A stretch of DNA of 33,869 bases from Jimgerdemannia flammicorona (taxonomy: Eukaryota), in contig RBNJ01000294.1 in the NCBI GenBank assembly GCA_003990765.1, positions 1-33,869 on the forward strand, in the 5' to 3' direction. Position 1 is the stretch's first letter. The number at the start of each line of letters is the position of its first letter. Below, one piece after another: positions 349 to 30,516 of the stretch. A model generated the notes under the pieces. It searched no databases and was not told where the DNA came from. It saw only the letters and a program-made list of their open reading frames with translations. A program made the translations under genes and the position numbers.

Positions 349-3300
349 AGTTTGCTAAGATAACTACATACTTGGTAATATTGTTAGAGAAGTTCAAAAT
401 ACCAACAGGAGATCAGTACAGAGATTTGCAGTTGCTATAGAAGAATGCAATATTATATACTTTAGATACAGAGAAGAAGACCACTATACAAAGAGTTACA
501 TAACTGAAACAAGACTCAAAGCCCAACTAAGCAATGCTATCAGAACTAGAGAATAAACCAATACAGTAGTCATTAAGGAGATTGGTGACACTGATAATAA
601 AGAATACTATAAGAAGTCTGAATTCTACTCTGTTACTGAAGATACTAGAATCTAGTCCAAGCCCTATGACAAGAAGGGCAAGAGCAAGTCAGTTGGAAGA
701 CTAAAGAAGACCCCAGCTATCACTATTCAAAGCAAAATCCAATTTAAGGAGATTGATTAAGACATGGATTTAGATGAAGCTATCTGCCAAATTATTGAAG
801 GCACTACTCTAGTCTCCAAAAAAAGTGAAAGCAAGAAAGATCAGAAGCTACACAAGACTAAGATCCACTAGTTGATATCTATAAGAATCTCAAGAAATAG
901 AAGGTCAATGCTACTTTTGGACAACTAGCTAAAGTTCTTAACTTCAGACAGCAGTTGAGAGTAAGACTTATAATAATTATCAAGAATGAAGAGTACAAGA
1001 TCATAGAAGCTCACAATGTACAAGAAGAATCCAAACACTCAGGCAAAGATCTGAAGACTAGCACAAGACATCAGCCTATACTCTATATCAGATTGAAGAT
1101 GGTATCTTTGATACCATCATTGATACTGGTGCTGGAGGATGCCTTATGAGCAAGAAGACAATTGACTGCCTAGACTGAGACAATGAAGAGTTTACCAAAA
1201 TGGTCTATGTTATAACAAATGGTATATGAGCTATCCCCTTAGATAAGATCCAAGAAGTCCCCATCAAGATAGGAGAAGCTACCATCCCAGTAAATGTGAT
1301 TATTATAAGTACTACCAACAATGATATTCTAATTGACAACTAATGGCTTTATAAGGCCAAGGCTATCATTGACCTTAATGCCCAGAAGATGTAGATCAAC
1401 TATAGAGGAAGAAAGGTATGAGTCTCTATCAATGGCCACAAAGGAGTACTATCAGATATGAAGGAAGGAGATGAAGAGGACACAGAAGTCTTCATACACT
1501 CAATGTATAAGAACAAGAGTAAGACACCCAAGCTCACAGATGAGCAGTGATATAACAAGATCATTGATAGTTATACTCCTCAAGAAAGATACCACCATGG
1601 TATCAGAATGTACTGCTCCAAACATTTGAATAACTACTGGTCCTGTATCAGTGAAGTCAGGAAAATCTGCTAACAAAAGCATGAGCAAGAAGCTGCTAAA
1701 GCAAAAAAGAAAGCTAAGAAAGATGACCAACCCCCAGAGCTTCAAGCTGATAGTGATGATGAGGAGGAGTATGAACCAGACATCACTCTTAAGGTCAAGA
1801 AGTTCCATCCTGAAGTCAAAATCTCAGAATATAAGACTAAAGGAGCTATATAAATAGACCTTACTAGCATTTAAGATGCTATCCTCAAACCATAGACCAC
1901 TACTCTACTTGGCACTAGAATTGGAGTCAAGTTGCTAGAAAACTATGTCAAAATTATCAAGACTAGAAGCAGTCTGGCCAAAAGTGAAATCTCAGTTGAA
2001 AGAGGAGTAATTAACCCTAATTACACTGGTGAGATCTTCTTTATAGTCAAGAATCACAACTCCACCACTCCATTCAAAGTCAAGAAGCATAACAGAATTG
2101 GCCAGATACTGATTCATGAAGTCAAAAAGCCCCAGATTACTAAAGCCATTAAACTTATCAAGACTAAGAGAGAAGAATAAGACTTTTGATCTACTAGAAG
2201 AGGAGTCTATGATATCATCAAGATTACTGAACTTGAGCACAAGAGAGACAAGGACCAGAACAAGTACATATATACCATTTGAGAAAACTTTTTCCTAAAA
2301 GAACAACTTCTCAAGATCCTGTACCAGAATGAAGAAGTACTTACTATAGACTTCAGGAACATCTACAATCAAGACCCAAGTACTACTATGAAGTTGACAC
2401 TGATAATATCAAGCTCATCTATTAGAAAGCCAGATCTATACCATCTGTTTACAGAGAATAGCTGCAAGCAGAACTCAAGGAAATGAAAGAAGCTAGAATC
2501 ATTAAGCAAACTATCAGCCCCTGGACTTCACTTATTATTCTTGCTCCAAAGAAAGGAAGTAAGCCTGGAGAGTTTGTTCCAAGACTCTGTATTGAATACA
2601 GAAAGCTCAATGCAATTACTAAGAAGGATAGACAGCCCTTGCCAAATATTCAAGAAATCCTTACCACTCTTGGAAGTGAAGCCAAATACTATACTATCTT
2701 GGATCTGTTCTCAGACTTCCATCAGATTGGTCTCACTTAAGATATCAGTAAGAAATCAGCCTTCATCACATCAGATACCATCTATATCTACCTGTAAATG
2801 TCATTTAGAATGTACAATATCTCAGTAAGTTTTCAGTAAATGATGAATAGAGTCTTCAGCAATGAGATTGGAAAATGGCTCTTTATCTATATTGATAATA
2901 TAATCATCTTCAACAATACTGCACAGGAATATGTCAATTATATATAACTAGCTCTCAAGAAGCTCAAGGAGTATGGCCTCTACAATAAGTCTAAGAAGTA
3001 TAATTTTACAGCTCAAGAAATCACCTACCTAGGACACATCATTAACCAGACTGAAATTCACATGGACCTTATGAAGATTAAGGCTGTTGGAGTCTACCCA
3101 AGACCCAGAACAACTACAGAAGTCTATGTCTTCCTTAGACTGGCCTCCTACTACAGAAGATTTATCAAAGAATACTCCAACATTGCAGCACCTATCTACA
3201 AGCTACTGAAGAAGGAGAACAAATTTGAATAGACCAAGAAATATCAAAAAACCTTCAATGAACTCAAGACCAGATTGATCCAAGCACTCATCCTCAGGAG

Positions 3301-4905
3301 ACTAGATTGGAACCTAGAGTTCATCCTGCAGACAGATGTAAGTACTATAGAACTTAGAGCAGTCCTAGCTTAGAAGAAAGATAGACATGAATATGTTATC
3401 TCCTATGTAAGCCAAGATATCCATAGAGCAGAACAGAACTATAAGTCATAAAAGCTTGAATGCTAAGCAGTAGTTTGTACAGTAAAGTTTCACTACTATC
3501 TAGCTAGGAAATACTTTATTATTTGAAAAGATCATTCTGCTCTTATCTGACTATTCAATAGTCTGAACCCCAAAGAAATATATACCAGATAGATATACAG
3601 ACTGTAAGAGTATGAATCTACTATTAAGTACTACTCAGAAAGAACTAATGCCAATACTGATGTATTCTCAAGGTCATCTTGAAATATCTTCAACAAGACT
3701 ATTCAATATGAATAATGAGCTATACTATAGATTAATCAGCTACCTTGGGTAGTAGAAGATGCCCAACCACCTCAAACTCTAGACTATCACCATCATCAAC
3801 TAGACTTTGAATCAATTTGAACTAGACAACACCACACTCAGAAAAGGAGAAAAGCTTATAATACCTGAATACAGAAGAATCAAGTAATAAAGGAAGTACA
3901 CAAACAAGGATATCTAGGAGGAACCAATATATATAACAAAGTAAGAAGAACTATATAGTGGCCTAAGATAGAAGAAGACCTATACCAATTTGTCAAAGAA
4001 TATGACAAGTACCAAAAACAGAAATAAGATCACTAAGACCAGGTACCCAGATCATCAAGAATTGAGTCTATCTCCTTCCACCACATCACAATGGATATCA
4101 TTGGATCACTACCAGTAATACTATTAGGAAACCACTATATTATAGTTATTATAGACCTCTTTATCAAATAGATAGAAGCAGGAGTATTACAAGAAGTCAA
4201 TACTCTCTCTATAGCTGACTTCCTGTACTAAGAAATCATTTGCTGCTACAAGACACCAAGGTAAATCACCACAGACCAAGGTATAGAATTTTTCAATGGA
4301 TTCTATATTCTATGAGATAATGTATTAGAAATATAAGATTCAGTATACCAAGACCACTACATACCATCCTCAAGGAAATAGATAGACAGAAAGAACCAAC
4401 AAGACTATCAAGAACATCCTGGCAAAGATCTCAGACACATATGACAATTGGGATAACTATCTCCCAACTACTCTCTCTGTCCTACAAGATATATAGTCAC
4501 AGAGTACACACTTTATCCCAAGAGAACTGCTCTTTGGAGAAGAAGATTCCAATAGAACCTTAGCCACAAATCTAGATCTAACTTGGAGATAGATTGACTC
4601 AGAAATCTGAAGACTACACCAAATCAGAAAGAAGGCTGAAGATTACATCATCAAGTTACAAGAACTGATAAGGAAGAATGCAGAAAAGAATCACAAGACC
4701 CTAGAACTCATCCAAATTGGAGAAAAGATCCTACTGTATTGAAATATGATAGAAGCCTCATAGTCATGAAAACTGGAGCCTATATGGAAAGGACCCTTCT
4801 ATGTATAAGATATTAAGAGAACTATCTCCTGGTTTAGAAAACTCTCAGAGACTGTACTACCTATCACAGTATACAGGAATAGACTCAAGAAGTACTATGT
4901 ATAAA
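349..4905 (+). pseudogene. gag-pol polyprotein remnant of element A (many transition-derived stops and frameshifts)
   Basis: ORF fragments 1932-2180 (dUTPase: TRSSLAK, GVINPNYTG, NRIGQ) and 2483-2740 (RT); end placed by homology with the B pol end. Confidence 0.85.
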
Positions 4906-5260
4906 CCTATATAAGAGAAGCAAAACATAATGACTGTCTGCAAGGTTCTAGTCCATAAATCATACCAGCATGTCCCATGACTAGCAGGCAATCTATTTGG
5001 ACCATTCTCTAAGAGATACAGCACTAGCAACTACTTATCCATGAGACTTTCGAAGTCAGAGGTATTTGAACCATCAACTGATTGGTCAAGATCATAATCA
5101 GGCCCTTGCTCTATATGAAGGGAGTGATCTATGCCAAAATATATAGAAAAGATACCAGCTCATAAACACTACTTTTTGACCCCCTGCCAGAGGTTATGAG
5201 ATTAGCAAATTTTTCAGACTGGACCAATGAATAAGAATGTTCAAGAGAAGATCCTTATTC

Positions 5261-5270
5261 AGGAGAAAGA
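5261..5270 (+). other. Polypurine tract of element A
   Basis: tattcAGGAGAAAGA directly before the LTR start; equivalent to B's tattcAGGAGGAAGt before its 3' LTR. Confidence 0.8.
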
Positions 5271-7077
5271 TATAATGGAGATCTCAGAATAATAATATTA
5301 GCACAGGAGTCAGCCTTTCTTTATAAGCTACCAGATCAGAGTATATATAAGAAGATCATATAGTATAACTTACCCAGGTTATAAGATGAGCAATGATGAT
5401 CAACTATGAGTCATTGTGACCATAAGAAAGATATCTTGAGGAATATATAACTCCTTATTATTGAGAGAAAGGATAATAAAATCCATTCTCTAAAGTTGGG
5501 AGGGGGGGAGAAGCTGCAGGATGAAAGTAACAGCTGTGATATTATGAGCTCCACATTCAGTTCTATGCCTCTGAGGTAACTTGCACAATTGATGGAAAAC
5601 TTGCATACAGTAATATAGAATACATAGAGTACATAAGAAAATCTCCACTAATAAAATAAAGATCAGTTGAGTGTCTAAAAAGTTGGATCTATTATGACAA
5701 CATCTTGAGAAATATAAAAGAAGAATCAAGAAACTACAGTAGCAGCAATCCAAACAAAGCTCACAAAATAGTTCAAAAGACTTACCACAAACAAATGCCT
5801 ACTGCTCACTAAACCTCAAGGTTCAGGAACTACCAAGGCTCCTCAGTCTAGAAAAGGATATTCTGAGACATCAGAAGAGTCATGAGGACCCATACAAGAA
5901 GGACTCCTAACATCAACCTGGATACTGGTGACCCTTATTATTATATTCTCTATTACTGAAAAATAGAAACAAGGATCACTATTACTACTGAATATCTCCG
6001 AATGTGACAGGAATATAAAATAAGAAACCTCCACTATCAGAAATTCCCTCAGGTCAGTCCCCAAGAAATATAAGATACCACCCCCATAGATATATATAAA
6101 ATAAGGACAGCTAAGAAGATTTATCAGGTCTTTAGGTATATACTATAGTCAATCTCCAACTTAGAGTATACTAGAATCTCAGACTTCAAGGAATGCTCAG
6201 CCTGCTGTACTAATGTACTAGAGTCCATAGTGGCCACAGAAGCCCAGTCCACTATAACCCTCAATAGTGATAAAGTAGAAGAGTTCTGGTATACCATCCT
6301 CCAAAACAATTCAGATCAATTTATGCAAGAATTGATCTCAGCATTCCAAGACCCCAGCATTCAGATTAGATCTCTCTAAGTCTCCATATTTGTTTCTTAT
6401 TTTATAGAAGAGAATGTTATATATTAGAGAGCCCCTGCTGAATATGATGATATTATTAGTAATAACATCATTCTGCATAATATATGCAAAACATACAAAG
6501 TAGATGAAATATTTGCAGATCTTATTTCCTTCAGCAGTAATGAAGATGAAGCCTCCATAGTTCTGAACATTCTGCTCTAATCTTGGTAACACCAAAGTCT
6601 TCTGGCTTTCTCTTTCTGTATAACTGAATTCTACTAGTATCCTTTTTCTGTAATATCTGAATCTTTGAGCACTCTTTTCCTATACTACTGAAATCTACTA
6701 GTATCCTGAACTTGTACAACTATTTGTATAGATACTTAAATTTATATTTACAACTATAGTTTTCTGGATTTTAGTATTTTATTTGGTTATTGAAATTTAT
6801 ATTTAGCTTTATAACTTAGCAACTACTGAATTATATTTTGTATAAATATTCCTCTTATTTCCTTTGAAATAAAGTCAGTCAAGTTTACTTACCCTCAATT
6901 CCATACAAATATCTTAGAGATAATAAGACAGTTTAAAGATAAGAAGTTTAAGGACTATAAGACCTTGGGAAGGCACTCTAATAAGAACTTGCTTATAACA
7001 AACTTATAGTAAGTCTAAGATATACACCTTGAAGAGAATCTGATATATTTGAAGAACTCAGAAACTACTATATAATA
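5271..7077 (+). repeat. Long (~1.8 kb) 3' LTR of element A
   Basis: Starts TATAATGG (mutated TGTAATGG) right after the PPT and ends TATAATA (mutated TATAACA). Homologous at both ends and over most of its length to the TSD-flanked copy at 15981-17477. TATA (gtataaata ~6840) and AATAAA (~6868) present. Confidence 0.85.
5795..6580 (+). pseudogene. LTR(U3)-encoded ORF of unknown function, 262 codons, frame intact but with internal stops
   Basis: ATG 5795 to TAA 6580 in one frame: MPTAH...DIRRVMRTH...QEYKIRNL...RTAKKIYQVF...ADLISFSSNEDEASIVLNILL*. Most stops align with sense codons in the second copy (16223-17030). Confidence 0.7.
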
Positions 7078-7836
7078 GTATATATATTCTGCTAAAAGAT
7101 GATCACAAATGTCATTTTTATAATATAAAATAATTTTAATTCCTCCTTTTTTTTTATTTTTTATTATTATCTGTTTTTAATATTTAGCTATAATTTGAAT
7201 ATATATAATTGATATTTTCATTGATAATATTGCAGCCATAATTATTTAAAATTACTTTGTTTGCAAGTAATAAATATATTGAACAAAAATGAAATTATTA
7301 TTATATAATAAAACAACTATAATGCAGATTATTGTATTTTGGTTGAGGTTTTCCCTAATAGTATGAAACTATTTATTTAAATTATCTCCACATTTTAGCA
7401 TTCTGAACAATATCAGTCAGATACTCCTTCTAGTAAATTGCTGTTATAGTATATCTGCAATATAGTACAGAGATATTTGTGAGTAATATTAGACTCTGAT
7501 AATATTGTTATCAATTAAGTTGATATATGGGTCATGTTTAAGACCATGTTTCACATGTTCAACTTGATGGATACTTTGAAAAATACTTGTTGGAAATGCT
7601 TTTTAGTTTTGACCCTCTAGCTAGTTGTTGTATATATAAAGTATATACTAATTCTTTAGAATATCAGATGATTGCAACTATATAGGGTATGTACTCCTTA
7701 AATATATATGTAGTAGAGGTATGCAAAGGTGGAATATATTTTAATACTAAATTGTATATGTTCTATATTGTTATTATTCTTAATATTTATTCTTTCTTAG
7801 TTAAATATATATATTATAAATTTTTTTTATTATCTA

Positions 7837-8104
7837 TATTGGATATATCTACTCTGATTATATCTGTATATATCTGATATCTAAATTTACTACAAATAGA
7901 GTCAGATAAATCTAGATATAGTTATATATATATTAATATTATATTTTATATCAATATCTACTCTACTATATTGATATGGTAACTCAATATATAGATACAT
8001 AATATTATACCATATATCATTCTATCATTTTATATCATTTATCAGTAATATATAAAATATATAACCTATACAACTTCAATAAAATTGCTCTCTCTTCTAT
8101 AATA
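7837..8104 (+). repeat. Putative 5' LTR of copia element E
   Basis: TATTGG...TAATA read as mutated TGTTGG...CAACA, ending 2 nt before the PBS; AATAAA ~8078. No partner LTR in the window to confirm. Confidence 0.4.
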
Positions 8105-8134: not shown

Positions 8135-8602
8135 TGTGATGATATAGCCAGATTTGGAAGAAGGAAATAGAGAACAGACACTTGATCACACCCAGTCCCA
8201 AAGTAGTATAGCCGCATAGTTAACAGTCCTTGATTTCGCAATCTGCTAAATATTTCGCAAAGTGCAAGATCGAGCTTCCCGATATAGTATAGCATTTCGC
8301 AACCTGCTGAATATTTTGCAAAGTGTTAAATGACTCATAACTTAGCCATGTAACTCAGTAACCATCTTATAGCTTGCAAACTTGTATAAATAACCCAGTA
8401 TCTTCGAGTGAATAAACCTCAGATTGAAATAGTTCAAAGCAAAAGAGATAGCAAAGGAACTAGTAAGCCTGTGGGCAAATACACTTCGAACTCACCCACC
8501 CTCCCCTGCAACTTCAAGAGACTCTGCAAGAGTCAGAACAGTCAAGTTTTCAAAATATAGAAATCTGACATACTTTCAAGAGTAAGTGTTCGCTACATTA
8601 CA
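8135..8602 (+). repeat. 5' LTR of element B
   Basis: TGTGATG...CATTACA; about 25 substitutions and no indels versus 14372-14839 by manual alignment (~95% identity). Confidence 0.97.
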
Positions 8603-8605
8603 ACT

Positions 8606-8623
8606 TAGTACCCATTGGCTGGT
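8606..8623 (+). other. Putative PBS of element B (cognate tRNA not identified)
   Basis: tagtacccattggctggt 3 nt after the LTR; the D copy (21582-21599) keeps TGGTACCCATTGGCTGGT. Confidence 0.6.
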
Positions 8624-8704
8624 GATTCAAGATGAATCCCTCACTTTCAAGCTGAATAACAAACAACCGCCACTACCCAAACCAAGCCCCAATACCCAGA
8701 CAAG

Positions 8705-11700
8705 ATGGATATGAGACCACCAGTATTCCATAGATATACCTCAGATGAATCAATTATCACCTTTATTGATGATTTCGAGCAGTATGCTGCTGTAAGGACC
8801 CTGACAGCAGCACAGCAAGTAGCCCTCATGCCCTTCAGCCTACGAGGCCCTGCCAGAGCAGTATTCACAGCCGCAACCCATGCAGGAAATGATGCCAATG
8901 CTATACTGACAGCACAGAAGACCTGGCTCTGAAATACATATTATACAGACGAGATCAAGCAAGCCCTGAAGGATCAGCTCAATATAACATGCTAATGAAT
9001 AAGCGAGGATCAAACACATTCTATATCAGAATTCGATATCAGATAATCCTTGCAGATTATGCTGCTGCTATCCAAGATCAAGTAGCCGAAGCAACCTTCA
9101 TGAAAGGAGTCCACCCAGAAATAGCCATGGCCATCCACTCATCACCAGTGATTCTGGATCTGCCACAGAAGGTCACCTATGCTCAGTGATACTGGATAGT
9201 CAGACATCCACAAGACCATATAATGGAAAGAGTCACAGGAGTCAGAATGGAGGCACCCAAGGCAACCAGTGTGATTCCTACCACAATGATCAATCAAAAC
9301 ACACCTCAGCTAAAAGCTACAGAGCAGCAAAAGAATAGTGACCCTATGGAGGAACTCGCCAAAAGATTTGCTGAAATGACTGCCCACCTGGGAGATGTGG
9401 TAAAGGAAATTCAAGGAAGAAACTGCCGCTCTGTTCAGAAGTTCACTGCCATCTCAGACAAGAAGAAAGGTACCTGCTATACTTGTGGAGAAGAAGGCCA
9501 CTACTCCTATGAATGCATGAGTGAAACCAAGTGCAAGGCACAACCAAGCAATGCTACACGAAACAAGGAGCAGGCCAATACAATTACCTTCAAGGAGAAT
9601 CAGAGATTCTGACAAAGAAGAATGGGAGGCCTATCCAGCTCAGACCAGCAAGAAGGATGCTTGCAAAGAACCCTACAAGAGACCACCAGGAAGACCCAAG
9701 AAGAACTCAGTGGAAAAGCAGATGGAAACTGCCACGGAAAGCCAAGCCAAAGAGATAGACCAAGATACAGAGCTGGAGCAAGCAGTTCAAGATATCATCC
9801 AAGGAATCACTCCAGCCAGCGAAGGAGAAAAAGAGAAAAAGCTTTGCAAGACCAAGACCTTCAAGTATGATATCTTCAAGGACCTCAGCCAATAAAAGGT
9901 CAATGCAACCTTTGGTCAGCTTGCAGAAATCTCAACATTCAGACAGCAAATGAGGTTTGGACTTGCTGAAACAACTAAGGAATAGGGATGGAAGATAACC
10001 GAGGCCAATAATGTTCAAGAGGACTCAGGAGAAGAAAGTGAGGACAATCGCAAAACCTCTGCATATGCAATATGCCAAATCAAAGATAGAATCTTCGAGG
10101 CCATCATTGATACAGGAGCAGGAGGATATCTCCTCAGCAAGAAGGCAGCAGACCACCTAGGTTGGGATGTAGAAGAAGCAACTAAGCTGGTGTTCATCAC
10201 AGCTGATGGCACAAGAGCTACATCTCTGGGAAAGATCCGAGATGTCCCCATCAAGATTAGAGGAGCAACCATCCCAGTAGATGTAATTGTAACCAATGCC
10301 ACTAACTATGACATCCTCATTGGCAATCAATAGCTTCACAAAGCCAAGGCAGTAATTGATCTCAATGCTCAGAAGATGCAGATCACCTACCAGGGACAGA
10401 AGATACGAATTCCCATCAATGTCAACAAAGGAGTCCTGCCCAACATAGAGGAAGAAGAGAGCAAGCAAGAGGAAGCTTATATGGTAACTACTCCAAAGAA
10501 GAAGAAAGTTGGATGGATGAGCAAAGAAGAATGGTGCAAGAAGATGGCAGAAGGCTATGCACCACAAGGAGTCTGTCCTCACTGGATCAAGATGTACTGC
10601 ATAGAGCACATCAATGATTGCTACCAGTGTACCATCGCAATCAGAAAGATCTACCAGGAAAGAAGACAGAAAGCTCTCGAAAAACAGATCAGGAAAGATA
10701 AGAAGGAGGAAGATGATGAACCACCAGCCCTCCTGGAGGACAGTGATGATGAAGAAGAAATCAAGGTCAAGATTCAAAAGATCCACCCTGATGCAGTCTT
10801 GCCAGAATACAAGTCAGAAAATGCAGCCGGAATGGACATCACTACAGTAGAAGAGACTGTACTGGAACTCCAGACAACCACCCTACTTGCAACTGGATTG
10901 GAGATGACCATCCCAAAGGATCATGTTGGGATTCTCAAGACAAGAAGCAGTCTGGCTAGAAGCGAAATTACAATTGAAGGAGGAGTCATCGATTCAGATT
11001 ACATTGGAGAAATTCTACTCATTGCTAGGAATCACAATTCTACAATCCCATTTCTAGTCAAGAAGAAGGACCGATTGGTGCAAATGTTGATCTTTCCGAT
11101 CCTACAACCAAAGATCATAGAAGTTAAGAAGCTGGAGGAAACAAGAAGAGGAAAGAAAGAATTTGGATCCACAGGAAGAGGAGTATTCACCAATACCAAG
11201 ATCACCGAACTCGAGCATAAGAAGGAGAAAAACACAACCAAGCACAGCTACACCATCGGAAATGAATTTCCACTTAAGAAAGAACTCAAGAAAATACTCC
11301 ACGAATTCGAGGATGTCCTTGTCACAGATTTCAAGGATATCAAAGGAAAGACCCCTCACTACTATCATGAAGTAGATACTGGAGACACTGAACCAATTTA
11401 TCAGAAGGCAAGACCTGTCCTGCCAGCCTACTGAGAATGGCTCAGAGAAGAAATCAAGCAGATGGAAGAAGCTGGCATCATTAAAGAAGCAAGCAGCCCC
11501 TGGTCCTCACCTGTTGTACTAGCCCCGAAAAAAGGTAGCAAGCCTGGAGAATTCGCCCCAAGACTCTGTGTTGACTACAGAAAGCTCAACATGGTTACCA
11601 AGAAGGATCGCCAACCACTGCCCCTCATCAATGACATCCTCATAATACTGGGAGATGAAGCACAGTATTACAGCACCTTGGACTTATACTCAGGATTCCA

Positions 11701-13883
11701 CCAAATCGGACTCACAGATACAGCAAGTGAAAAGTCAGCTTTCATCACTCCAGATGGAACCTACATCTACCTATGAATACCATTTGGAATGTGCAATGCA
11801 CCAGCAAGCTTCCAGTGAATGATGAACAAAATCTTCTGCTATGATATGAGAAGATGGATAATGGTCTACGTCGATGATGTAATCATCTACAGCAAGACAC
11901 CTGAGGAACATCTGCAGCACATACAGCAGATAATGGAGAAACTAAGACAACATGGCCTTTACATCAAACCCAAGAAGTGCAAGCTCGCAGAAATCAAGAT
12001 CTCCTATCTCAGCCACATCATCAACCGAGATGGAACACACATAGACCCCCTCAAGATACAAGCAGTGGCAGCATACCCAAGACCCACCACTGTTATGGAA
12101 GCCCAAGCCTTCATGGGACTCACCTCCTATTATCGCAGATTTATTAGAGGATTTTCTAATATTGTGGGACCAATCTACGAACTTAACAAGAAGGATACCA
12201 AGTTCCAGTAGACTGGCAGACAACAAAAAGCATTTGATGAACTCAAGGTCAGACTGACCCAGGCACCCATCTTCAGAAGACCTGACTGGACTCAAGAATT
12301 CATCCTACAGACTGATGCAAGCACACAAGAACTAGGAGTAGTCCTAGCTCAAAAGAAAGACAAAGTAGAGTATGTCATCACATACCTCAGCTGCAGAACC
12401 CGAGGAGCTGAAAAAGAATATGAATCCTACAAGTTGGAATGCCTCGAAGTCATCTGGGCCATAGAAAAGTTCCACTACTATCTGGCTGGAAGATACTTTA
12501 CCATTCAAACAGACCACTCAGGTCTCACCTGACTACTGACAACTGGACAACCCAAAGGAATCTATGCCAGATGGATAATGAAGTTGTAAGCTTATGATAT
12601 AACCATTGTACATCACTCTGGAAGAACCAATGCCAATGCAGATGCCCTCTCACAGATACCCTGAAGGACCCCACCCCTACAAAATCATCATGAATAAGGA
12701 GCTCTACTATGGAATTATCACATACCTGGGACAGCGAAAGATGCCCCAACATCTGGAAGAATGGACACAAATGATTATCAACAGAACATGGAAACAATTC
12801 GAAACCAATGGAGAAATACTGAAGAAAGGAAAACTAATAGTCATACTAGAACACAAGAAGGAGCAAGTGATGAAATTAGTATACAAACTTGGCCATCTAG
12901 GAGGAATGAATACATACAACAAAGCAAGAAGAACAATATGGTGGCCAGGGATGGAGGAAGATATCAGACAATTTGTCAAGGCCTGTGACAAATGCTAGAA
13001 ATAGAAACAAGATCAACGAAATCAAGCCCCAGGATCAGCACACATAGAACTAGTACCATTTGCCCACATTGTAATGGATATAATTGGTCCTCTACCCTTG
13101 ACTTTGACTGGCAACCGATACATCATCATCATTGTAGACCTCTTTACAAAATGGATAGAAGTGGGACCCCTTATGGAAGCCAATATACAGTCAATCACCA
13201 ATTTCTTCCACAAGGAAATCATCTGCCAGTTCAAGACCCCAACACAAGTAACTACAGATAGAGGAACTGAATTCGTGAACCAGTTCTTCAAAGTTCTCTA
13301 CAAGAAGTACAAGATCCAGCATATTCAGACTACAGCATATCACCCTCAAGGAAACAGACAAGTAGAAAGGACCAACAAAACCCTCAAGAATGTTATCACC
13401 AAGATCTGTGATAAATACGAGAACTGAGATCACTATCTACCAATAGCATTATCTGCTCTCTGGGATATCCGATCACAAAGTACCCACTTTATCCCTCAAG
13501 AAATGCTGTTCGGAGAAGAATGTTCTCAGGGAACCTTATTATCCAATGGAGATGCTGTATGGAAACATGTAGATATAGAAATACAGAGACTACATCAAAT
13601 AAGAAAGAAGGCTGAGGATTACATAACGAAGGTGCAGACACTACAATGGAGGAATGTGGAAAAGACCCACAAACCCTTGGAGATTATCAAGATAAGAGAC
13701 AAAGTCCTAGTGTATTGGAATATGGTTGAAGCTTCATAGTCATGAAAACTGGAGCCCAAGTGGGAAGGACCTTACCTTGTGCAAGATATAAAAGGAACCA
13801 CCTTTTGGCTACGAAAACCCTCAGGCACAATAATCCCCACCACTATTCATCGAAACCGACTTAAGAAATATCATGGCCAGTAA
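8705..13883 (+). pseudogene. gag-pol polyprotein of element B (gag, CCHC knuckle, aspartic protease, dUTPase, RT, RNase H, integrase), disrupted
   Basis: CYTCGEEGHYSYEC 9475-9516; AIIDTGAG ~10100; RT LCVDYRKLN and YVDD ~11867; RNase H LQTDAS ~12305; integrase TDRGTEF and TTAYHPQGN; WEGPY ~13761; stop TAA 13881-13883. Stops are mostly CGA>TGA, TGG>TAG/TGA, CAA>TAA. Confidence 0.95.
10760..11176 (+). CDS. Trimeric dUTPase domain within B pol, between protease and RT
   Basis: All five motifs in the open frame 10376-11434: AGMDI, RSSLA, GVIDSDYIG, DRLVQ, RGKKEFGSTG. Confidence 0.95.
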
Positions 13884-14334
13884 CAAAAGTACTGTGATGG
13901 CACTCAAGATCACTAGTGCTGCCCAAAGAGCCATTGAGAGGCAATGGTGCACCACCGAGCCTCCAACTATAGAGGAGTCTTATGATAGTATCCAAAGCAT
14001 CGTACAGACTCATCTCTCTCGGATCTCACACTTCAAGGCCTATCAGCATCGAAACGAATTCCAAGAGTACTTCAAACTCAGTCAAGTACTCAACCAAGAC
14101 CCAGAAATGACCAAAGAAAATTGGATCGCAGAATCTCAGCTCTCCTATTCCCAGATCACCATCGCCAAGAGAATCTACAAGCTATTCTGAGAGGATGAAT
14201 CAGCACTAGTGCACCTGTGAGGAGTGACCCCTGCAGACTTTGACCGAGTCAGACAACACTATTGGGAAACAGTAATGTAACAAATTGCACAATACAAGAC
14301 CATACAGACCATTGAAGCTTGGGAGTTTGAATAA
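13873..14334 (+). pseudogene. Extra ORF (ORF3) of element B, ~153 codons, unknown function
   Basis: ATG overlaps the last 11 nt of pol; 105 aa open, continuing in frame through three single-transition stops to TAA 14334. Homologous to the LTR-encoded ORF of family A. Confidence 0.75.
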
Positions 14335-14361
14335 ATGCTTTAGAGACGAGATCATCTATTC

Positions 14362-14370
14362 AGGAGGAAG
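14362..14370 (+). other. Polypurine tract of element B
   Basis: AGGAGGAAG one base before the 3' LTR. Confidence 0.85.
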
Positions 14371-14371
14371 T

Positions 14372-14839
14372 TGTGATGATATAGCCAGATTTGGAAGAAG
14401 GAAATAGGGAACAGACACTTGATTGCACCCAGTCCCAAAGTAGTATAGCCACATAGTTAATAGTCCTTGATTTCACAACCTGCTAAATATATCACAAAGT
14501 GCAAGATCAAGCTTCCCGATATAGTATAGCATTTCACAACCTGCTGAATATTTTGCAAAGTGTTAAATGACTCATAACTTAGCCACGTAACCCAGTAACC
14601 ATCTCATAGCTAGCAAACTTATATAAATAACTCAGTATCTTCGAGTGAATAAACCTCAGATTGAAATAGTTCAAAGCAAAAGAGATAGCAAAGGAACTAG
14701 TAAGCCTGTGGACAGATACACTTCGAACTCACCCACCCTCCCCTGCAACTTCAAGAGACTCTGTAAGAGTCAGAACAGTCAAGTTTTCAAGATACAGAAA
14801 TCTGATGTACTTTCAAGAGTAAGTGTCCGCTACATTACA
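14372..14839 (+). repeat. 3' LTR of element B
   Basis: Direct repeat of 8135-8602, followed by TSD gtag. Confidence 0.97.
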
Positions 14840-16222
14840 GTAGCTATAGCAAATATATTTCTTTAAATATAGATACACTATACTAGAATTATCAGATGAT
14901 TAGTCTAGTAATATAGATATATTAATTACAAGTATTCTCATAGATATAATCTCAATAGATATGGGAAATATAGTTCTAGTTATAAGTATAAATAGAGCCA
15001 AGTGGTCTATCTTGAGCTTTTACAGGAAAGTTTATATTATTTGAATATTCCATATTATGAATCTCCTTGACAAATATGGCTCAGCAGAGTATACAAAGTT
15101 ACAAGTACTGATTCAAGATTACAATGCTTCAAATAATTACTGAGTATTATATAAGATTATATTCATATTATTAAATTCTCAAATGAAGCTCATAATATAT
15201 ACTATGATATATAGCTTATAAGATATAGAAGACTTTATATAATTATCATATATAAGCATCTATATTAAATTGATTTTACTTGAAATCTCAACTATTCAAT
15301 TTATGAATAAAATCTAAGAAGAGCATCTATGAATACATCAGTTATGTTGATAATCTGATGAATTAAGTAAATTCTCTCAGTACATCTGCAGATTATATTG
15401 GCAATAATAATAAGGTTATAGAACTTATAAGAGGACTTCCAGATGTATATACATAATGTTATTATTTAGCTATATATAGAAGTGGCAGACTTATAAACTA
15501 TATCTATATAATAATATCTTCTATAGATCCTGTAAATGTAGTTCCAAATGAGATCAAAGTACAGATAATAAAACCAATAAACCAAAACCCAAAATCAATA
15601 CAATAATAGTCAATCAACTAAGTATGATAGTTACTATGAATATTATATATAGAAAAAACTATTATTATTACTGAGAAAATGATAAGGAGAGTAGTGAAAA
15701 TAAACAATATAGAAGCTAGCATTGACAATATCAGGGTAATAGAAAGAACTATTGAGGTAAAGGAAAGTATATAATATAAATACTACCAAAAGAGATGATA
15801 ACAGTGGTGTATTTTTTGTATAAGCAATATATATAGATGACTATATTTTTACCACTAAATCCACTGATCTGTCATCTACAAATCCTGGTCAGTAAAATAA
15901 TTTTGAGTCAATAAAAAGTGATAATGATATCAGTATCTAAGAGAGAAAATATCAACAGAGTGAGCAGTATACATTACTATTGTAATGGTGACCCCAGAAT
16001 GATGACATCAGCACAGGAGACAGCCTTTCCTTATAAGCCACCAGATTGGAGCACAAGAAGATCATACGGCATATAAGATGAGCAATGATGACCAACTGTG
16101 AGTCATTGTGACCACAGCATGAGCATCCTGAAGAATATAAAAGAAGAATCAAGAAACCACAGTAGCAGCAACCAACAAGAACCACCAATCCCAAAATAGC
16201 TCAAAGACTTACCACAAACAAA

Positions 16223-17030
16223 ATACCTACTGCCCACCAAACCTCAAGGTCAAGGAATCATCAAGGTATCTCAGTCGAGGAAAGGATGTTCCAAGACATC
16301 AGAAGAGTCATGAGGACCCACTCAAGAAGGACTCCTAGCATCAACCTGGGTACTGCAGACCCTTATCACTTTATCCTCTACTATAGTGAAATGGAAACAA
16401 GGATCACTATTACTACCAAATACCTCCAAATGTAACAGAAGTATGAAATAGGAAATCTCCTCTACTGGGAGTTCCCACAGGCCAGCACCCAAGAGCTACA
16501 TACAAGATGCTACTCTCATGGATATATGTGAAACAAGGATAGCTAGAAAGATCCATCAGATCTTCAGGCATGCACCATGGTCAATCCCTAACTTGGAGTA
16601 TGTTAGAGTCTCAGATTTCAGAGACCTATCATCCTGCCATATCAATGTACTAGAAGCCAGGGTGGCTACAGAAGCCCAGTCCACCATCACCCTCAACAGT
16701 GAAGAAGTAGAAGACTTCTGGTACCCTATCCTCCAGGACAACCCAGATCAATTTCTGCAGAGATTGATCTCAGTATTTCAAGGCCCAAGCATCTGAGTTA
16801 GATCTCCCCAAGACCCCACATTTGTTTCTTATTTTGTGGAAGAGAACCTCATAGACTGGAGAGCTCCAGACCTTGTCTCCGATTTCCCTGCCACAGCCGA
16901 ATGTGATGATGTCATCGATGACATCATTCCGCATAATATTGAAGTATATGAAAATGATGAATTCACAGATCTCATCTCCTTCAGTGATGATGATGATGAA
17001 GCCCCCATAATCCTGAACTTTCTGCTCTAA
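16223..17030 (+). pseudogene. Second copy of the LTR-encoded ORF
   Basis: Start ATG>ATA at 16223, a 4-bp taca duplication near 16497-16504 shifts the frame, two internal stops. Contains track ORFs 16518-16796 and 16836-17030, which share one frame. Confidence 0.75.
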
Positions 17031-17048
17031 GTTCTTTGTTAAACTAGA

Positions 17049-17168
17049 TAATGCCAGCACCAGTATTCTTATGTAATACTGAATAATGCCAGCACCAGCA
17101 TTCTGAGGTGATGTGAAATTGTTCCAGCACCGGTATTTTGATGTGATACTAAATAATGCCAGCCCTGG
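17049..17168 (+). repeat. 35-bp tandem repeat (~3.4 units) in U3 of the solo LTR
   Basis: Units begin at 17049, 17084, 17119 and 17154 (taatgccagcaccagtatt...). Confidence 0.85.
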
Positions 17169-19012
17169 AACTTAGTAGTTTTAGTTATTGGAATTTATAT
17201 TTAGCTTTATATCTTAGCAACTATTGAATTATATTTTGTATAAATACCCCTCTTATTTCCTCTGAAATAAAGTCAGTCTTCTCAGTGCAATATACACACT
17301 TTCTTGCAAGCAATCTAAGAGATAACAAGATAGTTAAAGATAAGAAGTTTGAGGACTATAAGATCTTGGGAAGGCACTCCAATAAGAACTTGCTTATAAC
17401 AAACTTGAGTTAGTCTAAGAGATATACCTTAAAGAGAATCTGGCATATTTGAAGGACTCAGTGACTACTATATAACACTATATATCTGATGAATGCACTG
17501 CAAACATAGTTAATAACAACAATATCTAACTAATAAATTCTAGAGCCATGTAATATATAATACTATACAGAGAATAATTCTCTATATATAAGCCTTTCAA
17601 GTATTCTATATCTTTCAAAATAGGAGATAACAATGTTATCTATACTCAAAGAAAGGGAAATATAGAAATATATCTCTATAGTAATATTATAGAACTCACT
17701 AGTATCATTCTAAATATACTATATACTTCAGAAATCAGTAAAATCTCTTTTTGATAAACAAGATGATGTTCTGTAATAATAAATATATATATATATGTTC
17801 AAAGAGCAAAACTGTATATAATTTAGATAACAAAAAGCTAATAATAGTCTTAAATGAGATACTGAATAGTGTAAAACTCTCTATATATGTGATAACTATG
17901 TCTAATATATCCAATATATAGTATTAATACTTAGAAAATATTGGCAAATTAAGCCTTGAAAGAATGATCTAAAGTGGCTCAGTCAATAAATTACTGATAT
18001 ATATATATCTGAAGAATAACCTTTATAAGATATATATAGAAAACAAAACATTCTAGCAACTATTCAAGAAATGATTAAAGTGTGCATCAGAGATTCTTGA
18101 CCTTATATATATAGATATATGTGGGCTAATATATATACTATTGTACTCTAGAAAGAAATATTTTATTATATTTATCAATTATTATATATATAAAGTATAT
18201 ATATACTTTTTATTAGTAAAGAGTGAATTCTTAGATAAATTCAAAGAATTCAAAGTGATCACTGAGAATAAGACAAGATATAGAGAGCATGCTATATAAT
18301 TAGATAACAGATACAAATACATTAATAATATATTCAAGTAGTTTCTAAAAAAAATATAGTATATATTATCAAATTACAGCTCCTTATATATCTCAACAGA
18401 ATGGTATAGCTGAGCAATTTAACTATATAATCATTAAAATAGTTTGAATGATGATTAATATACTTGATTATCATATTCTTATTAGATCAAAACTATTAAA
18501 ATAGCAGTATATATATATAATTGATATATTTCTCAAGTACTAAGCAAAGGGTCTAGCAACAATAAGTATTCCAGAGATAAGAATCTTATCTCTAAAGAAT
18601 TGTAGAGTAAAACTAAGTCTGATATATCTCATCTATATTTATTTGGTTGTGAGACATATATCCTCAATAAAAATAATACCAATTAGTATAAATTTGAGCC
18701 AAAAGTAAGCAAGTATAGATTTCTTAGATATTCTAGCAAGACATATTAACTCTGGGATTCACACAAGTAGTATATAGTTATTTTGTATAATATATAGTTT
18801 AGAGAAAAAGGAAATCATCTATCCTATATAGATATATCTATCAGTATTTCTATATATATCTCAGCTAGTATAAGTGCACATCTATCATCTATCTCTCTAG
18901 TGATCAATCAAAATTATTTTCAACTACTATATATATCAGAGTCTGAGCTAGAGTTGCTAAGAATAATAGAGATCAAAGATAAAGATAATGGTGAACTCTC
19001 CAGTAAAGAGAG

Positions 19013-19948: not shown

Positions 19949-21083
19949 GGTAGAGGGAGTATAAGTTGTGAAAAGAGAACTTAGAAGGTTGTCTACTAAA
20001 TCTTATGACCAGTAAGATAGTAGAGAAAGAGGTATCAGTAATGAGAGATCTTCTATCTCTATAAAGAATAAGTAAAAGTACTCTAACATTTACTAAGAAA
20101 CTTGTTCTGATTTAGAAAATTATTGAAATATATTAGCAAGTACTAAATAGCAATATTTGGACTATATATGCTATGCCAAAGTATATATATATATATATAT
20201 ATATTATAATATCTTCTAATGAGTCAAATATATATAATGAAGCTATAACCAGTTCTGATAAAGAGAAATAGAAATAAGCTATGGATGAAGAATATGATTT
20301 ACTTATCTAGAATAGTATATAGGATTTTGTATCTCTTCTATCAAATTGCTAAATAATTATATCAAAGTGGGTCTATAAAATCAAGCATAAGAACAACTGA
20401 AGCATAGAGTGATATAAAGCTCATTTCATTACCAAGAGTTACTTATAAGATTACAGCATAGACTACAATAAGGTATTTTCACTGATATTCAAGCTTACTT
20501 CACTTAAAATACTCCTTGTAATCAGTATGCTATATAATCTAGAGATCTATAAAATAGATATAGAGATAGTATTTCTGAATAGTAATATAGATATTAAACT
20601 ACATATCTATCAATTATAAGAATATGAAAATAGTGAGCTTATATATAGATTATATCAGAGACTATATGATATCAAATAAGCAGAATAATTCTAAAATAAA
20701 AAGATTGATGAATATATCCATAATGATAGATTTATATATTGTGAAACAGATAATTATATATATATCTAACATTATAATAATAGAAGCATAGTATTTATCA
20801 GTATTTGAATTGATAATATAATTATTATTGAAAACAAGAATAGGCTTAACAGAGTCAAAGAAGTCCTCTACTGAGAATTCAAGATAATAGATTTAGACAA
20901 TATATCCTTTCTTTTAGAGATATCCATTAAATGTAATAGAAATACATATACTATACATCTCTTATAAGTGATATATACTTAAACAATCCTTAAATATTTT
21001 AATATAAGTAATTGTAAGTCTGTTGGCACTTATTTATAAATTAAAAAAGCTGAACACTATAATCAAGAATCATAACAATATAC

Positions 21084-21578
21084 TGTGATAGTAGATCTAA
21101 ATTAGGAATAGAAATCAGAGAAATTAGGCATTTGATCACAGTATCTAAACCCAATTCCTAATATAGTATAGTCTTATGAATAGTAGTTATTATTATTTCA
21201 CAACTGTAAAAGTTTTTATAAATATTGAACTCTTTACAAATATTGAAGATTTTGTAGGTATTGAAAATTTTGCAGATGTTGAAGATTTTGCAGATGTTAA
21301 ATAATTCAATACTTGTAAAAAGTGACTCATAGGAAATATAGTCATAACTTAGCCACCTTATAGCTAGCAAACTTATATAAATAACTCAGTAAATAAACCT
21401 TAGATTGAAATAGTTCAAAAGCAAAAAGAAAGCAAAGGAACTATAAAGCCTGTGGGCAGATATACTTTGAACTCACCCACCCCTGCATCCTGAGGACTCT
21501 GTGGAGTAAAAAGAAGATTAAGTTTCTAAAATACAGAAATCTGACATACTTTCAAGATTAAGCATCTGCTATATTACA
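21084..21578 (+). repeat. 5' LTR of element D
   Basis: TGTGATA...TATTACA, followed by acTTGGTACCC; 3' half aligns with the B LTR. Confidence 0.85.
21222..21300 (+). repeat. 18-bp tandem repeat (~4.5 units) in U3 of the D LTR
   Basis: Unit approximately tgttgaagattttgcaga; explains the (FNICKI)n shadow ORF 21158-21370. Confidence 0.8.
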
Positions 21579-24500
21579 ACTTGGTACCCATTGGCTGGTG
21601 ATTTAAGATGAATCTCTCACTTTTAAGCTGAATAATAAATAACTACCACCTGAACAACCATACAAATTGAACTAAGATATCCAGACAAAATAGATATAAG
21701 ACCACCAGTATTTCATAGTTACATATACTTCAGACAAGTCAATCATTACCTTTATTGATAATTTCAACCAATATACTACTATAAGGGGCCTGACAGTAAG
21801 GCAGCAAGTAACCCTCATGCCCTTCAGTCTCTGAGGACCAGCAAGAGCAGCATCACAGCTACAACCCATATAGAAAATGATGATAATGCTATGCTAGCAG
21901 TATAGAAGACCTGGCTCCAAGCCACATACTATATAAATGAGATCAAGCAGGCACTGAAGAATTAGCTCAATATAATATACCAAGAAATGAGTGAGGATCC
22001 AAATATATTTTATACCAGAATCTGATATCAGATAATCCTTACAGATTATACTATCACTATTAGAGATTAAGTAGCTGAAGCAATCTTTATACTCAGAGAT
22101 AGCCCTGGCTATCTACTCATCATCAATAGTTCTGGATCTAATACAGAAGGTCACTTATATTCAACAATACTGAATAGCCAGATATCTACAAGACTATACA
22201 ATGAAGAGAATCACTGGAGTTGGAATCAAAGCACTCAAGGCAACCAGCATGATCCCTACTATAGTGATTAATCAAAACACACCTCAACCAAGAGCTACTA
22301 AACAATAGAGAAATAGTGATTATATAGAGGAACTTGCCAAGAAGTTCACCAAAATGACAGCCTACCTAGGAGATGTAATAAAGGAAATTAAAGGAAGAGA
22401 CTGCCACCTAGTTTAGAAATTCACCATCACCTCAGACAACTTACTATATCTGTGGAGAAGAAGACCACTACTCTTATGAATGTATGAGTGAAACTAAGTA
22501 CAAAGCCCAACTAAGCAATACTACTTGAAATCAGAATTAGGTCAACATTATCACCTTTGAGGAGATTGAGAAATCAGATAAAGAGAAATAAGAGACCTAT
22601 CCTGCACAGACCTCTAAGAAGGATGTCTACAAAGAACTCTACAAGAGATCACCAGGGAGATCTAAGAAGAACTCTATGGAAAAGCAGATAGAGACTTCTA
22701 TAGAAAGTCAAGATAAATAAATAGATCAAGATATGGAGCTAGAATAGGCTGTTTAAGATATCATCCAAGAAACTACTCCAGCTAGTGAAGGAGAAAAGAA
22801 GAAGAAGCTTCACCAAACCAAGACCTTCAAGTATGATATCTTCAAGGATCTCAGTCAACAAAAGGTCAATACAACCTTCAGTCAGCTGGCAGAAATATCT
22901 ACATTGAGACAGTAAATGAGATATGAACTTGTTGAGACAACTAAGAAGTAAGGATGGAAGATAACTGAGGCCAACAATGTTCAAGAGAACTCAGGAAAAG
23001 AAAGTGAAGACAACTGTAAGATCTTTGTCTATACAACCTATCAAATTGAGAATAGAGTCTTTGAGACTATCATTGATACCAGAGCAGGAGGATGTCTTCT
23101 CAGCAAAAAAAGCAGCAGACTGCCTAGGTTGGGAAGTTGAGAAAGTAACCAAATTGGTATTCATCACAGCAGATGGTATAAGAGCCACACCTCTGGGAAA
23201 GATCTAAGATGTTTCCATCAAGTTTGGAGAAGCAACCATTCTAGTGGATGTAATTATACTAATGCAACCAACTATGACATCCTTATCAACAATCAATGAC
23301 TTTACAAAGCCAAGGTAGTAATTAATCTGAATACTCAGAAGATGCAGATCATCCACTACAAACAAAAGATTCCAATTCCCATCAATGTTAACAAAGGAGT
23401 CCTGTCTGAGATAGAGGAAGAAGAGAGTAGACAAGAGGAGGCCTACATAGTGACAACTCAGAAAAAGAAGAAGAAAATCAGATGGATGAGTGAAGAAGAC
23501 TGATGTAAGAAGATTATAAAAGGATATGCACTATAAGGAGTCTACCCCCATGGGATCTGAATGTACTGTATAGAGCTTATCAATGAGTGTTACCAGTATA
23601 CTGGTAAAATCAAGGAGATCTACTACCAAAGAAGAGAGAAAGTCCATAAGAAACAAGTAAGAGAAGAAAAGAAAATAAAAGAAGAAGAGAATGATGAACC
23701 ACTAGCTCTTCTCAAAGACAGTGATGATGAAGAGAAAATCAAGATCAAGATTAAGAAGATTCATCCTGATATAGTCTAATCAGAATATAAGTCAGAAAAT
23801 GCAACTGAAATAAATATTACCACAGTAGAAGAAATGGTACTTAAACCCCAGACAACTACCCTACTTATAACTGGTCTGAAGATGACCATTCTAAAGGACC
23901 ATATCAGAATCCTCAAGACAAGAAGCAGTCTGGCTAGGAGTTAAATCACAATTGAAGGAGGAGTTATCAATTTAGACTATATTTGAGAAATACTACATAT
24001 TACTAAGAACTACAATCCTATGATTCTATTCCCAATCAAGAAGAAGAACTGACTGGTATAGATATTGATCTTTCCAGTTCTTCAGCCAAGAATTATAGAA
24101 GTCAAGAAGTTGGAGGAAATAGAAAGAGAAAGGAAAGAATTTGGATCTATAGGAAGAGGAGTGTTCACTAGTATCAAGATCACCAAGCTAGAGTACAAGA
24201 AGGAGGAAACTACAAACAAGCACAGCTATACTATTGGAAATGAATTTCCACTCAAAATGGAGCTCAAGAAAATACTCCACAAATTTGAGAATATTCTTAC
24301 CATAGACTTCAAGAATATCAAAGAAAAGACTCTATACTACTATCAAGATATAGATATTTGAGATACCAAACCAATTTACCAGAAGGCAAGACCTATCCCA
24401 CCAGGCTACCAAAAGTGGCTTAGAGAAGAAATCAAGCAGATGGAAGAAGCTAGTATCATCAAGGAGGCCAGCAGTCCCTGGTATTCACCAGTTATACTAG

Positions 24501-30490: not shown

Positions 30491-30500
30491 GATATAATGG

Positions 30501-30514: not shown

Positions 30515-30516
30515 AG

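Follow-up and report, generated by a model that had tools for sequence, protein, structure and literature searches.

An uncharacterised accessory-gene family of dUTPase-bearing gypsy elements lies on opposite sides of the polypurine tract in two related element families of Jimgerdemannia flammicorona

A stretch of 33,869 nucleotides from Jimgerdemannia flammicorona (contig RBNJ01000294.1, forward strand; this whole stretch is the window) is a nest of Ty3/gypsy long terminal repeat (LTR) retrotransposons, as seen by self-comparison and by Pfam searches of read-through translations. Two related families of dUTPase-bearing elements in it, here called A and B, carry members of one uncharacterised accessory-gene family on opposite sides of the polypurine tract (PPT), the purine run that precedes the 3' LTR. 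We put a probability of about 75% on the reading that this gene encodes a conserved, soluble, mostly helical accessory protein, which is internal in B and present in A as a longer paralogue (~260 codons) borne in the U3 part of the LTR. To our knowledge, such accessory genes have remained poorly understood in LTR retrotransposons, and nearly all known cases of a gene within an LTR come from retroviruses.

In element B the gene is an open reading frame (ORF), ORF3, whose ATG at 13873 overlaps the pol stop codon (TAA 13881-13883) by 11 nt, within ATGGCCAGTAA. Its end lies 26 nt short of the polypurine tract CAGGAGGAAGT (14361-14371), and a first-pass annotation made from the letters of this DNA had placed the gene correctly in both respects. 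The frame that opens at 13873 reads MASNKST...QEY-x30-IAKRIYKLF*EDESALVHL*GVTPADF...EAWEFE* (asterisks are stops) and holds the B strings which that annotation had quoted. ORF3 has 10 relatives at 70–83% identity (E 1e-48 to 4e-28), among them an intact protein of 153 amino acids, P0001, to which it is identical at 124/153 positions. The three stops of ORF3 face R, R and Q of P0001, as expected of stops made by transitions, which is how the annotation had explained them. Because an intact relative exists and the stops fall opposite such residues, ORF3 is, on its comparison with these relatives, a dead and decayed copy of a real gene.

Family A has two copies of its gene in the window. Copy 1 runs in one frame from ATG 5795 to TAA 6578-6580 and contains QEY-x30-TAKKIYQVFRYIL*SISNLEYTRISDF; it is identical to the relative P0021 at 160/261 positions, and its 9 internal stops face Q, R or W of that protein. 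Copy 2 is matched by the A-family hidden Markov model (HMM) in two frames, at 16235-16507 (89 bits) and 16491-17027 (249 bits), and its TGA at 16794 closes an open part of 92 codons. The A string that the first-pass annotation had set against ORF3 turned out to be a composite of the two copies: its QEY is present in copy 1, but the downstream IARKIHQIFRHAPWSIPNLEYVRVSDF comes from copy 2 (from 16518), the upstream part of which reads QKY and lies in the other frame owing to a frameshift at about 16470-16518.

A near-length word search with the 92-residue fragment found no relatives, but an exhaustive search with the same query did find some: P0011 (90% identity, 247 aa), P0012 (54%), P0013 (41%, 342 aa), P0014 and P0019. 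The other 5/10 rows of that search (P0015–P0018 and P0020) were dropped, being proteins of 709–1507 aa that match query residues 20–61 only, in 4–8 repeated stretches at 20–26% identity; P0015 is repetitive and T/S/N-rich. Searching with a profile then brought in P0021 (full length at 271 aa, its MP... start being that of copy 1), P0022–P0028 and two tail fragments, and an intact A-type member of 291 codons was found on metagenome contig L001. Scans of viral contigs and of genome contigs with the B and A alignments gave no loci. The A-type relatives have open frames of 214–342 aa at 30–90% identity, and compared with B the A form is extended beyond the shared N-terminal domain by a further conserved block and by a C-terminal tail that is acidic.

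Because A-type frames of 214–342 codons have stayed open between relatives only 30–47% identical in protein, the comparison implies selection on the A-type protein. We consider it very improbable that these ORFs are not functional proteins and are instead open through recency, or conserved as cis-acting RNA or DNA (for packaging, or as a promoter). The family has no known domain and its predicted folds are of low confidence, both of which would suit such a view; yet frames of this length would not be expected to survive at this divergence without selection, conservation in the A family is patterned in blocks with near-invariant residues, and the 291-codon frame of L001 is the only plus-strand ORF of at least 100 codons on its contig.

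The A and B genes very probably share a homologous N-terminal domain of ~100–125 residues, judging from comparisons between the two families. Aligned with hhalign, the B family matched the A family with a probability of 71.9% (P 3.5e-5) when 6 A sequences were used and 87.1% (P 4e-6, 98 columns) when 14 were used, and the register agreed with that of the first-pass annotation for the core. With 6 sequences the score was reached by 0/200 column shuffles (maximum 24.4; reversed alignment 17.0). With 14 it was 44.5, reached by 0/100 shuffles at each of block sizes 1, 8 and 20 (maxima 25.3, 31.7 and 39.9; reversed 13.1). The A-family HMM matched the intact B-type protein P0001 with 24.7 bits (E 6.7e-10, Z=1), a score reached by 0/2000 shuffles (maximum 8.2), in an almost gapless alignment of HMM positions 26–150 to residues 16–141. 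Reciprocally, the B-family HMM gave 11.8, 10.8 and 9.5 bits against P0019, P0023 and P0021, each reached by 0/1000 shuffles. Across families, 11/11 B sequences were matched at E of at most 0.0033, as were 13/14 A sequences at E of at most 0.0024 (Z=1). Even simple BLASTP between intact members aligned P0001 with P0023 (E 2e-6, 31% over 67 residues, ALAHLRGVT against AIAHLQGVT) and with P0021 (E 3e-4). When the A-family HMM was run over the six frames of the window, ORF3 of B was its sole match beyond the A copies.

These results have to be set against the behaviour of the window copies themselves. The first-pass annotation had aligned those copies by hand and would have given the pairing up if it was not significant against shuffled sequences, and between these two copies alone it is not: the local BLOSUM62 score of 41, compared with 32.1±5.6 for shuffles, was reached by 159/2000 of them. 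The B-family HMM likewise scored 0.4 and -0.9 bits on the window A copies, level with a noise match. The B family is also shallow (effective number of sequences, Neff, 1.44), the hhalign probability is 87% and not above 95%, and there are no confident structures of either protein to compare. All of this speaks for two unrelated ORFs whose likeness is due to chance or to convergence between two small, helical, hydrophilic proteins. We regard that explanation as improbable, given that 0/300 shuffled alignments reached the hhalign score, that this score went up on adding A sequences, that HMM matches in both directions and BLASTP matches reach intact members as listed above, and that the two genes lie in the same slot, 3' of pol, in elements that are related. 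The annotation's broader claim, that the A and B ORFs form one divergent family, is thus upheld by the family comparisons. Its further match upstream of the core, EESYDSI with EERMFQDI, is ambiguous in register: hhalign keeps the pair at the cost of 22 added gap positions, but the nearly gapless HMMER alignment does not make it.

In family A the gene is best read as lying wholly inside the LTR, with 5271-7077 as the 3' LTR of element A and 15981-17477 as a solo LTR, because four observations on the boundaries agree. The best match to B's PPT and LTR start within 4899-7081 is ATTCAGGAGAAAGA/TATAATGG at 5257-5278 (score 39.5 versus 28.9±3.3, reached by 2/300 shuffles). The homology between the two A copies starts exactly at the base after this PPT (5271 and 15981, copy 2 reading TGTAATGG) and ends at the same point in both, ATATAATA at 7077 and ATATAACA at 17477. 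Copy 2 stands alone: neither a PPT nor A-internal DNA was found upstream of it, and downstream there is no A-like or B-like internal sequence (30/40 and 14/40 shuffles reached the respective scores). Finally, copy 2 is flanked on both sides by CTAT, a match with a chance probability of 0.007, with slight freedom in the placement of the ends. The ORF (5795-6580) thus lies 3' of the PPT (5260-5270) and within the repeated unit.

The first-pass annotation had also put the A gene 3' of the PPT inside the LTR, and this placement stands; its details do not, since the PPT is at 5260-5270 and the gene has about 261 codons, more than the short stretch quoted. The tract it had in mind was probably the G-run at 5498-5510, which we rejected as the A PPT: it lies in a segment, 5451-5700, that LTR copy 2 lacks. 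The 19-bp repeats that bound this segment duplicate the TATA-box region, and it may be an insertion in copy 1 or a deletion in copy 2. We also rejected positions 1-348 of the window as the element's own 5' LTR; this DNA resembles the LTR of another element, C, at 72–79% identity, and the truncation point of A is at 349.

The inside-LTR placement draws on a single 3' LTR, a solo LTR flanked by a 4-bp repeat, and the logic of the motifs; the window contains no A element with two LTRs, which counts against it. So does the comparison of the 3' parts of the A and B LTRs, which share motifs in an alignment that 11/100 shuffles reached and that is not significant. In a different layout, 15981-17477 would be a truncated 3' fragment of an A element and the real A LTR only the last 400–450 bp, downstream of the gene, so that the gene would be internal as in B. 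The TATA, AATAAA and terminal motifs of B's 468-bp LTR do recur in the last ~250 bp of the A repeat, a TGTGAT/TGTAAT unit resembling an LTR start is repeated immediately 3' of the gene, and in the relative L001 a PPT directly follows the gene. We nevertheless think this layout unlikely. It leaves the start of the A1/A2 homology at the base right after the tract that best matches B's PPT, the lone state of copy 2 and its CTAT flanks to coincidence; no purine tract precedes the post-gene TGTAAT units; and the post-gene region is not significantly like the PPT and LTR start of B or of L001. The flanks of the solo LTR could be aligned as the two halves of a B-like LTR, in two marginal alignments (3/300 and 2/100 shuffles) that conflict with each other.

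Several smaller observations concern the same regions. Each unit of the two post-gene tandem repeats (Table 1) has a TGTGAT/TGTAAT...GCCAG string, and the repeats could be enhancers or a relic boundary; the likeness of these units to an LTR start is without statistical support. Just upstream of the solo LTR, at 15759-15775 and 15908-15951, are PPT-like strings and strings like B's PPT and LTR start, and in an alternative alignment 15824-15975 pairs with the middle of a B LTR, so that the solo LTR may sit in another, heavily mutated LTR. Where B's ORF3 starts, A retains an ATG that overlaps the pol stop (4896-4916), and it opens only a 5-codon frame, MYKPI*. Neither the family HMMs nor shuffled alignments gave an ORF3-like signal in the A spacer, 4905-5259.

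Three arrangements of the gene can now be compared. In B it is internal and single-copy, between pol and the PPT. In A the PPT and the 5' end of the LTR lie 0.24–0.5 kb upstream of it. In L001 the A-type gene is directly followed by AAGGAGGGAGGAT/TGTAATAAG, a motif that begins in the stop codon and consists of a purine tract and a canonical LTR start. This class of motif, a purine run with TGTAAT, occurs 7 times in 67.7 kb (the window, both strands), two of them being the A and B junctions, and once in L001. When a tree was built on the shared domain, 100/100 support split the B family from four A-type groups; L001 fell with P0012 and P0013 and outside the window-like group. Since the window's A is alone in having the gene inside the LTR, B and L001 having it outside, the outside position is most simply read as ancestral, and the gene as having probably moved into the LTR in the window's A lineage; this reading draws on three data points and a midpoint root. 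Against it, L001 has only 272 bp after the PPT-like motif, and the LTR there is putative.

The PPT and LTR start of A are nearly identical to those of B, and they are closer to B's than to L001's, which suggests recombination more than the emergence of a new priming site on the spot. In the A lineage, a B-like module of PPT and LTR end would have come to lie upstream of the formerly internal gene and so enclosed it in the LTR, by way either of a new priming site or of recombination between elements. The shift of the priming site that the first-pass annotation had named as the cause is not shown: A's PPT and LTR start are nearly B's, no relic boundary was detectable, and recombination fits equally well. 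We looked for traces of the event and rejected each candidate as unsupported: the A spacer 4905-5259 as a relic of ORF3 (134/300 shuffles reached its score against B ORF3 DNA) or of the A gene (12/300), the PPT and LTR start of L001 against the A LTRs (160/300 and 287/300), the A LTR start against the rest of the A LTR (141/300), and the A or L001 leader against B's pol end (334–447/500). Downstream of the A ORF, no remnant of a PPT or of an LTR start stands out statistically.

The gene may also have its own transcription unit. A putative promoter motif, TATAAAAG, lies upstream of the start codon of B ORF3 (Table 1) and also 82 nt upstream of that of A copy 1 (5713-5720), 87 nt upstream in A copy 2 (16136-16143) and 80 nt upstream in L001, and a TATA/AATAAA region of an LTR lies downstream of each gene. 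Because the motif recurs 80–87 nt upstream and an LTR AATAAA follows, this arrangement suggests a separate short transcript. Two points weaken the suggestion: the motif of B lies in coding sequence and could be there by chance, and B and A cannot be aligned in the DNA that surrounds it. L001 also has a 33-nt direct repeat at 170-202 and 1481-1513 (82% identical, GTCAGGCGGAAC...CAGAACA), one copy upstream of the TATA box and one in the putative LTR, which may be a shared regulatory motif.

The family proteins are hydrophilic, with a grand average of hydropathy (GRAVY) of -0.5 to -0.7, and no hydrophobic run of at least 18 residues was found in any that we examined, so the annotation was right that they lack the signal peptide or transmembrane (TM) segment of an env-like protein of the errantivirus or Athila type. 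It was also right that the family is uncharacterised: Pfam-A has no significant match to the 11 B-family or 14 A-family members, and among PDB sequences one family profile gave a single match at E 0.076 and the other none. The Pfam domain HTH_Tnp_Mu_2 (PF09039) was rejected as an identification, since its match to the window ORF (14 bits, E 0.055) is below the gathering cut-off of 20.5 bits; similar sub-threshold matches occurred in 3/11 B-family members (best E 0.031) and 0/14 A-family members. In the ESM Atlas the proteins fall in unnamed small helical clusters (scores 0.83 for P0021 and 0.95 for P0001), whose neighbour clusters are partly common and yield no usable family.

With low confidence, we speculate that the protein is a non-structural, trans-acting helper, most likely a regulator or adaptor of a transactivator-like kind. 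The N-terminal 160 residues have an isoelectric point (pI) of 4.5–8.1 (6.4–8.1, near neutral, in 4/5), and the A tail is strongly acidic (pI 4.05–4.45) and carries conserved hydrophobic motifs, LISF and LNF among them; an acidic tail of this kind, studded with hydrophobic residues, would recruit host factors as a transactivator does. An alternative role would be that of an antagonist of host genome defence. Some of the protein data run counter to this picture. The N-terminal domain lacks a basic character, and this speaks little for DNA binding; the AlphaFold2 models of both proteins, which are helical, have low confidence (pLDDT 55.4 and 53.8); and a fold search with these low-confidence models gave a best VIA Z of 4.9, with 0 chains at Z of at least 5.

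As part of U3, the A gene would be copied into both LTRs in each replication cycle and would survive in solo LTRs. A more far-reaching and distinctly tentative proposal is that the family-A LTR is a self-contained cassette, with a TATAAAAG promoter, a 260-codon ORF and the poly(A) signal of the LTR, formed by recombination that placed a B-like PPT and LTR end upstream. Every LTR, solo LTRs included, might then serve to express a trans-acting factor. A gene that is doubled in each element and kept in solo LTRs would alter the dosage of such a factor, which could matter for genome inflation in repeat-rich fungi. That one family is internal in one lineage and LTR-borne in its sister offers a natural experiment on the joint evolution of gene content and the plus-strand priming boundary. 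As the family is without a Pfam model, annotation pipelines would call its members hypothetical or mask them as repeats.

Table 1. Features of elements A and B and of their accessory genes in the window
Feature	Position	Strand	Remarks
Element A internal region	349-5270	+	5'-truncated (349 aligns to B 9365, alignment aware of repeat-induced point mutation, RIP); pol stop TAA 4902-4904
Element A spacer	4905-5259	+	355 bp, non-coding, between pol stop and PPT
A polypurine tract CAGGAGAAAGA	5260-5270	+	precedes start of A1/A2 homology
A 3' LTR, copy 1	5271-7077	+	start TATAATGG, end ATATAATA; TATAAATA 6841-6848, AATAAA 6868-6873
Copy-1-only segment	5451-5700	+	250 bp between 19-bp direct repeats; absent from LTR copy 2
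A-family gene, copy 1	5795-6580	+	261 codons, 9 internal stops; A-family HMM 253 bits over 5810-6583
Tandem repeat just 3' of A gene copy 1	6613-6707	+	32 nt x 3.0 (Tandem Repeats Finder, TRF)
Element B 5' LTR	8135-8602	+	468 bp; 94.7% identical to 14372-14839; start TGTGATGA, end CATTACA
Element B gag-pol	8705-13883	+	protease, dUTPase, reverse transcriptase, RNase H, integrase; interrupted by stops and by one frame change; pol ends at TAA 13881-13883
TATAAAAG, putative internal promoter	13787-13794	+	inside end of integrase coding sequence, 86 nt upstream of ORF3 ATG
B ORF3	13873-14334	+	153 codons; in-frame stops TGA 14188, TGA 14218, TAA 14278
B polypurine tract CAGGAGGAAGT	14361-14371	+	abuts 3' LTR; boundary set by repeat 8135/14372
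Element B 3' LTR	14372-14839	+	TATA 14620-14629, AATAAA 14648-14653
A-family solo LTR, copy 2	15981-17477	+	flanked by CTAT, 15977-15980 and 17478-17481
A-family gene, copy 2	16223-17030	+	start ATG changed to ATA; frameshift ~16470-16518; premature TGA 16794-16796
Tandem repeat 3' of A gene copy 2	17048-17163	+	35 nt x 3.3 (TRF); unit contains TGTGATACTGAATAATGCCAG, loosely like an LTR 5' end

Element B is complete (8135-14839) and encodes gag, protease (PR), dUTPase, reverse transcriptase (RT), RNase H and integrase. Its read-through translation, with stops as X, matched the Pfam families RVT_1 (2.8e-30), dUTPase (9.4e-26), Integrase_H2C2 (2e-15) and rve (2.5e-11), as well as RT_RNaseH_2 and gag-asp_proteas, in the Ty3/gypsy (Metaviridae) order PR-RT-RNase H-integrase, with the dUTPase between PR and RT. 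Its LTRs are direct repeats with ends TGTGAT...ATTACA, a PPT precedes the 3' LTR, and the flanking sequences, GTAA and GTAG, fit a short target-site duplication. Elements A and C are homologous to element B in pol by tblastn, A being 46–61% identical. All three gypsy families have a dUTPase between protease and RT (B 10790-11170, A ~1800-2200, C 29061-29453 on the minus strand), which in A and C is supported by tblastn matches and in B by the Pfam match.

A second B-like copy, B2, occupies 21350-25007 and 30979 to about 32540 and ends before the region of ORF3. It is interrupted by element C, which is inserted on the minus strand at 25008-30978 and has 463-bp LTRs that are 88% identical; the alignment of the flanking B2 parts overlaps by ~5 bp. 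The pol of C is 29–36% identical to that of B, and no integrase match was seen in C in this comparison. A further C-like LTR end (72–79% identity) lies at 62-348 of the window, and the integrase region of B2 contains a C-rich microsatellite of ~5 CTCCCCCC-like copies at 32258-32296. After the truncation of B2, from ~32540 to 33869, the DNA has 45–49% G+C and a G-over-C skew of up to 0.44, is without a long ORF, and has P/S/T-rich minus-strand frames.

Transitions outnumber transversions 194 to 82 between the two A copies and make up 23/25 of the differences between the B LTRs, and the window contains blocks of 22–26% G+C; this bias and these blocks fit RIP-like decay of the elements and would point to a fungal host. 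Blocks of this composition between recognisable elements, at 7000-8100, 17500-19000 and 20000-21500, are presumably repeats mutated past recognition, and those of them that were compared had no similarity to A, B or C.

Extra ORFs have been seen before in related elements. Fungal Ty3/gypsy elements have been drawn with an additional ORF ('add. ORF') of unknown function, and PosPlaTy3-5 has a dUTPase between PR and RT (Novikova et al. 2010, PMC2864245). The elements described here resemble these in having both a dUTPase in that place and an extra ORF, but the parts of that paper available to us give no sequence family, PPT or LTR position, or LTR-borne copy for the additional ORF. Bdelloid rotifer LTR retrotransposons have extra ORFs 3' of pol (PMC5408684), and Boty has an antisense accessory ORF, brtn (PMC8365987). 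The ORFs of families A and B, unlike brtn, are read in sense. 

Plant gypsy elements carry extra ORFs as well. As far as the accessible text of these reports goes, the rotifer, plant and Boty ORFs are like the present family in being captured or novel accessory ORFs downstream of pol, and none is reported to switch between the internal region and the LTR. That gypsy elements can have extra ORFs is already known. For a protein gene inside the LTR or U3 of a retrotransposon we found no report, only retroviral text on mouse mammary tumour virus (MMTV), in a literature whose coverage was incomplete and excluded supplements, which may hold element maps, so that this is not proof of absence.

Further parallels in layout are retroviral. 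Comparison of either family profile with PDB sequences gave no homology to sag, nef, tas or bet, and no likeness to a foamy-virus fold was found. The foamy-virus genes tas and bet (bel genes) are 3' accessory genes that have an internal promoter in the upstream coding region and reach into U3. The order of TATAAAAG, ORF and LTR poly(A) signal is alike here, but the promoter is only inferred, and the hosts and the class of element differ. In human and simian immunodeficiency viruses (HIV/SIV) nef overlaps the PPT and U3, and the sag product of MMTV is a membrane glycoprotein. The sag ORF lies within the U3 of the MMTV LTR (PMC9412291). With sag and nef the A gene shares a position beyond or spanning the plus-strand priming site, and hence its duplication in the LTRs; unlike sag, its family is without a TM segment, belongs to a non-enveloped retrotransposon and has a sister family that keeps the gene outside the LTR. 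If the cassette proposed for family A is real, it would be the retrotransposon counterpart of these retroviral U3 genes, with the transition caught between sister lineages.

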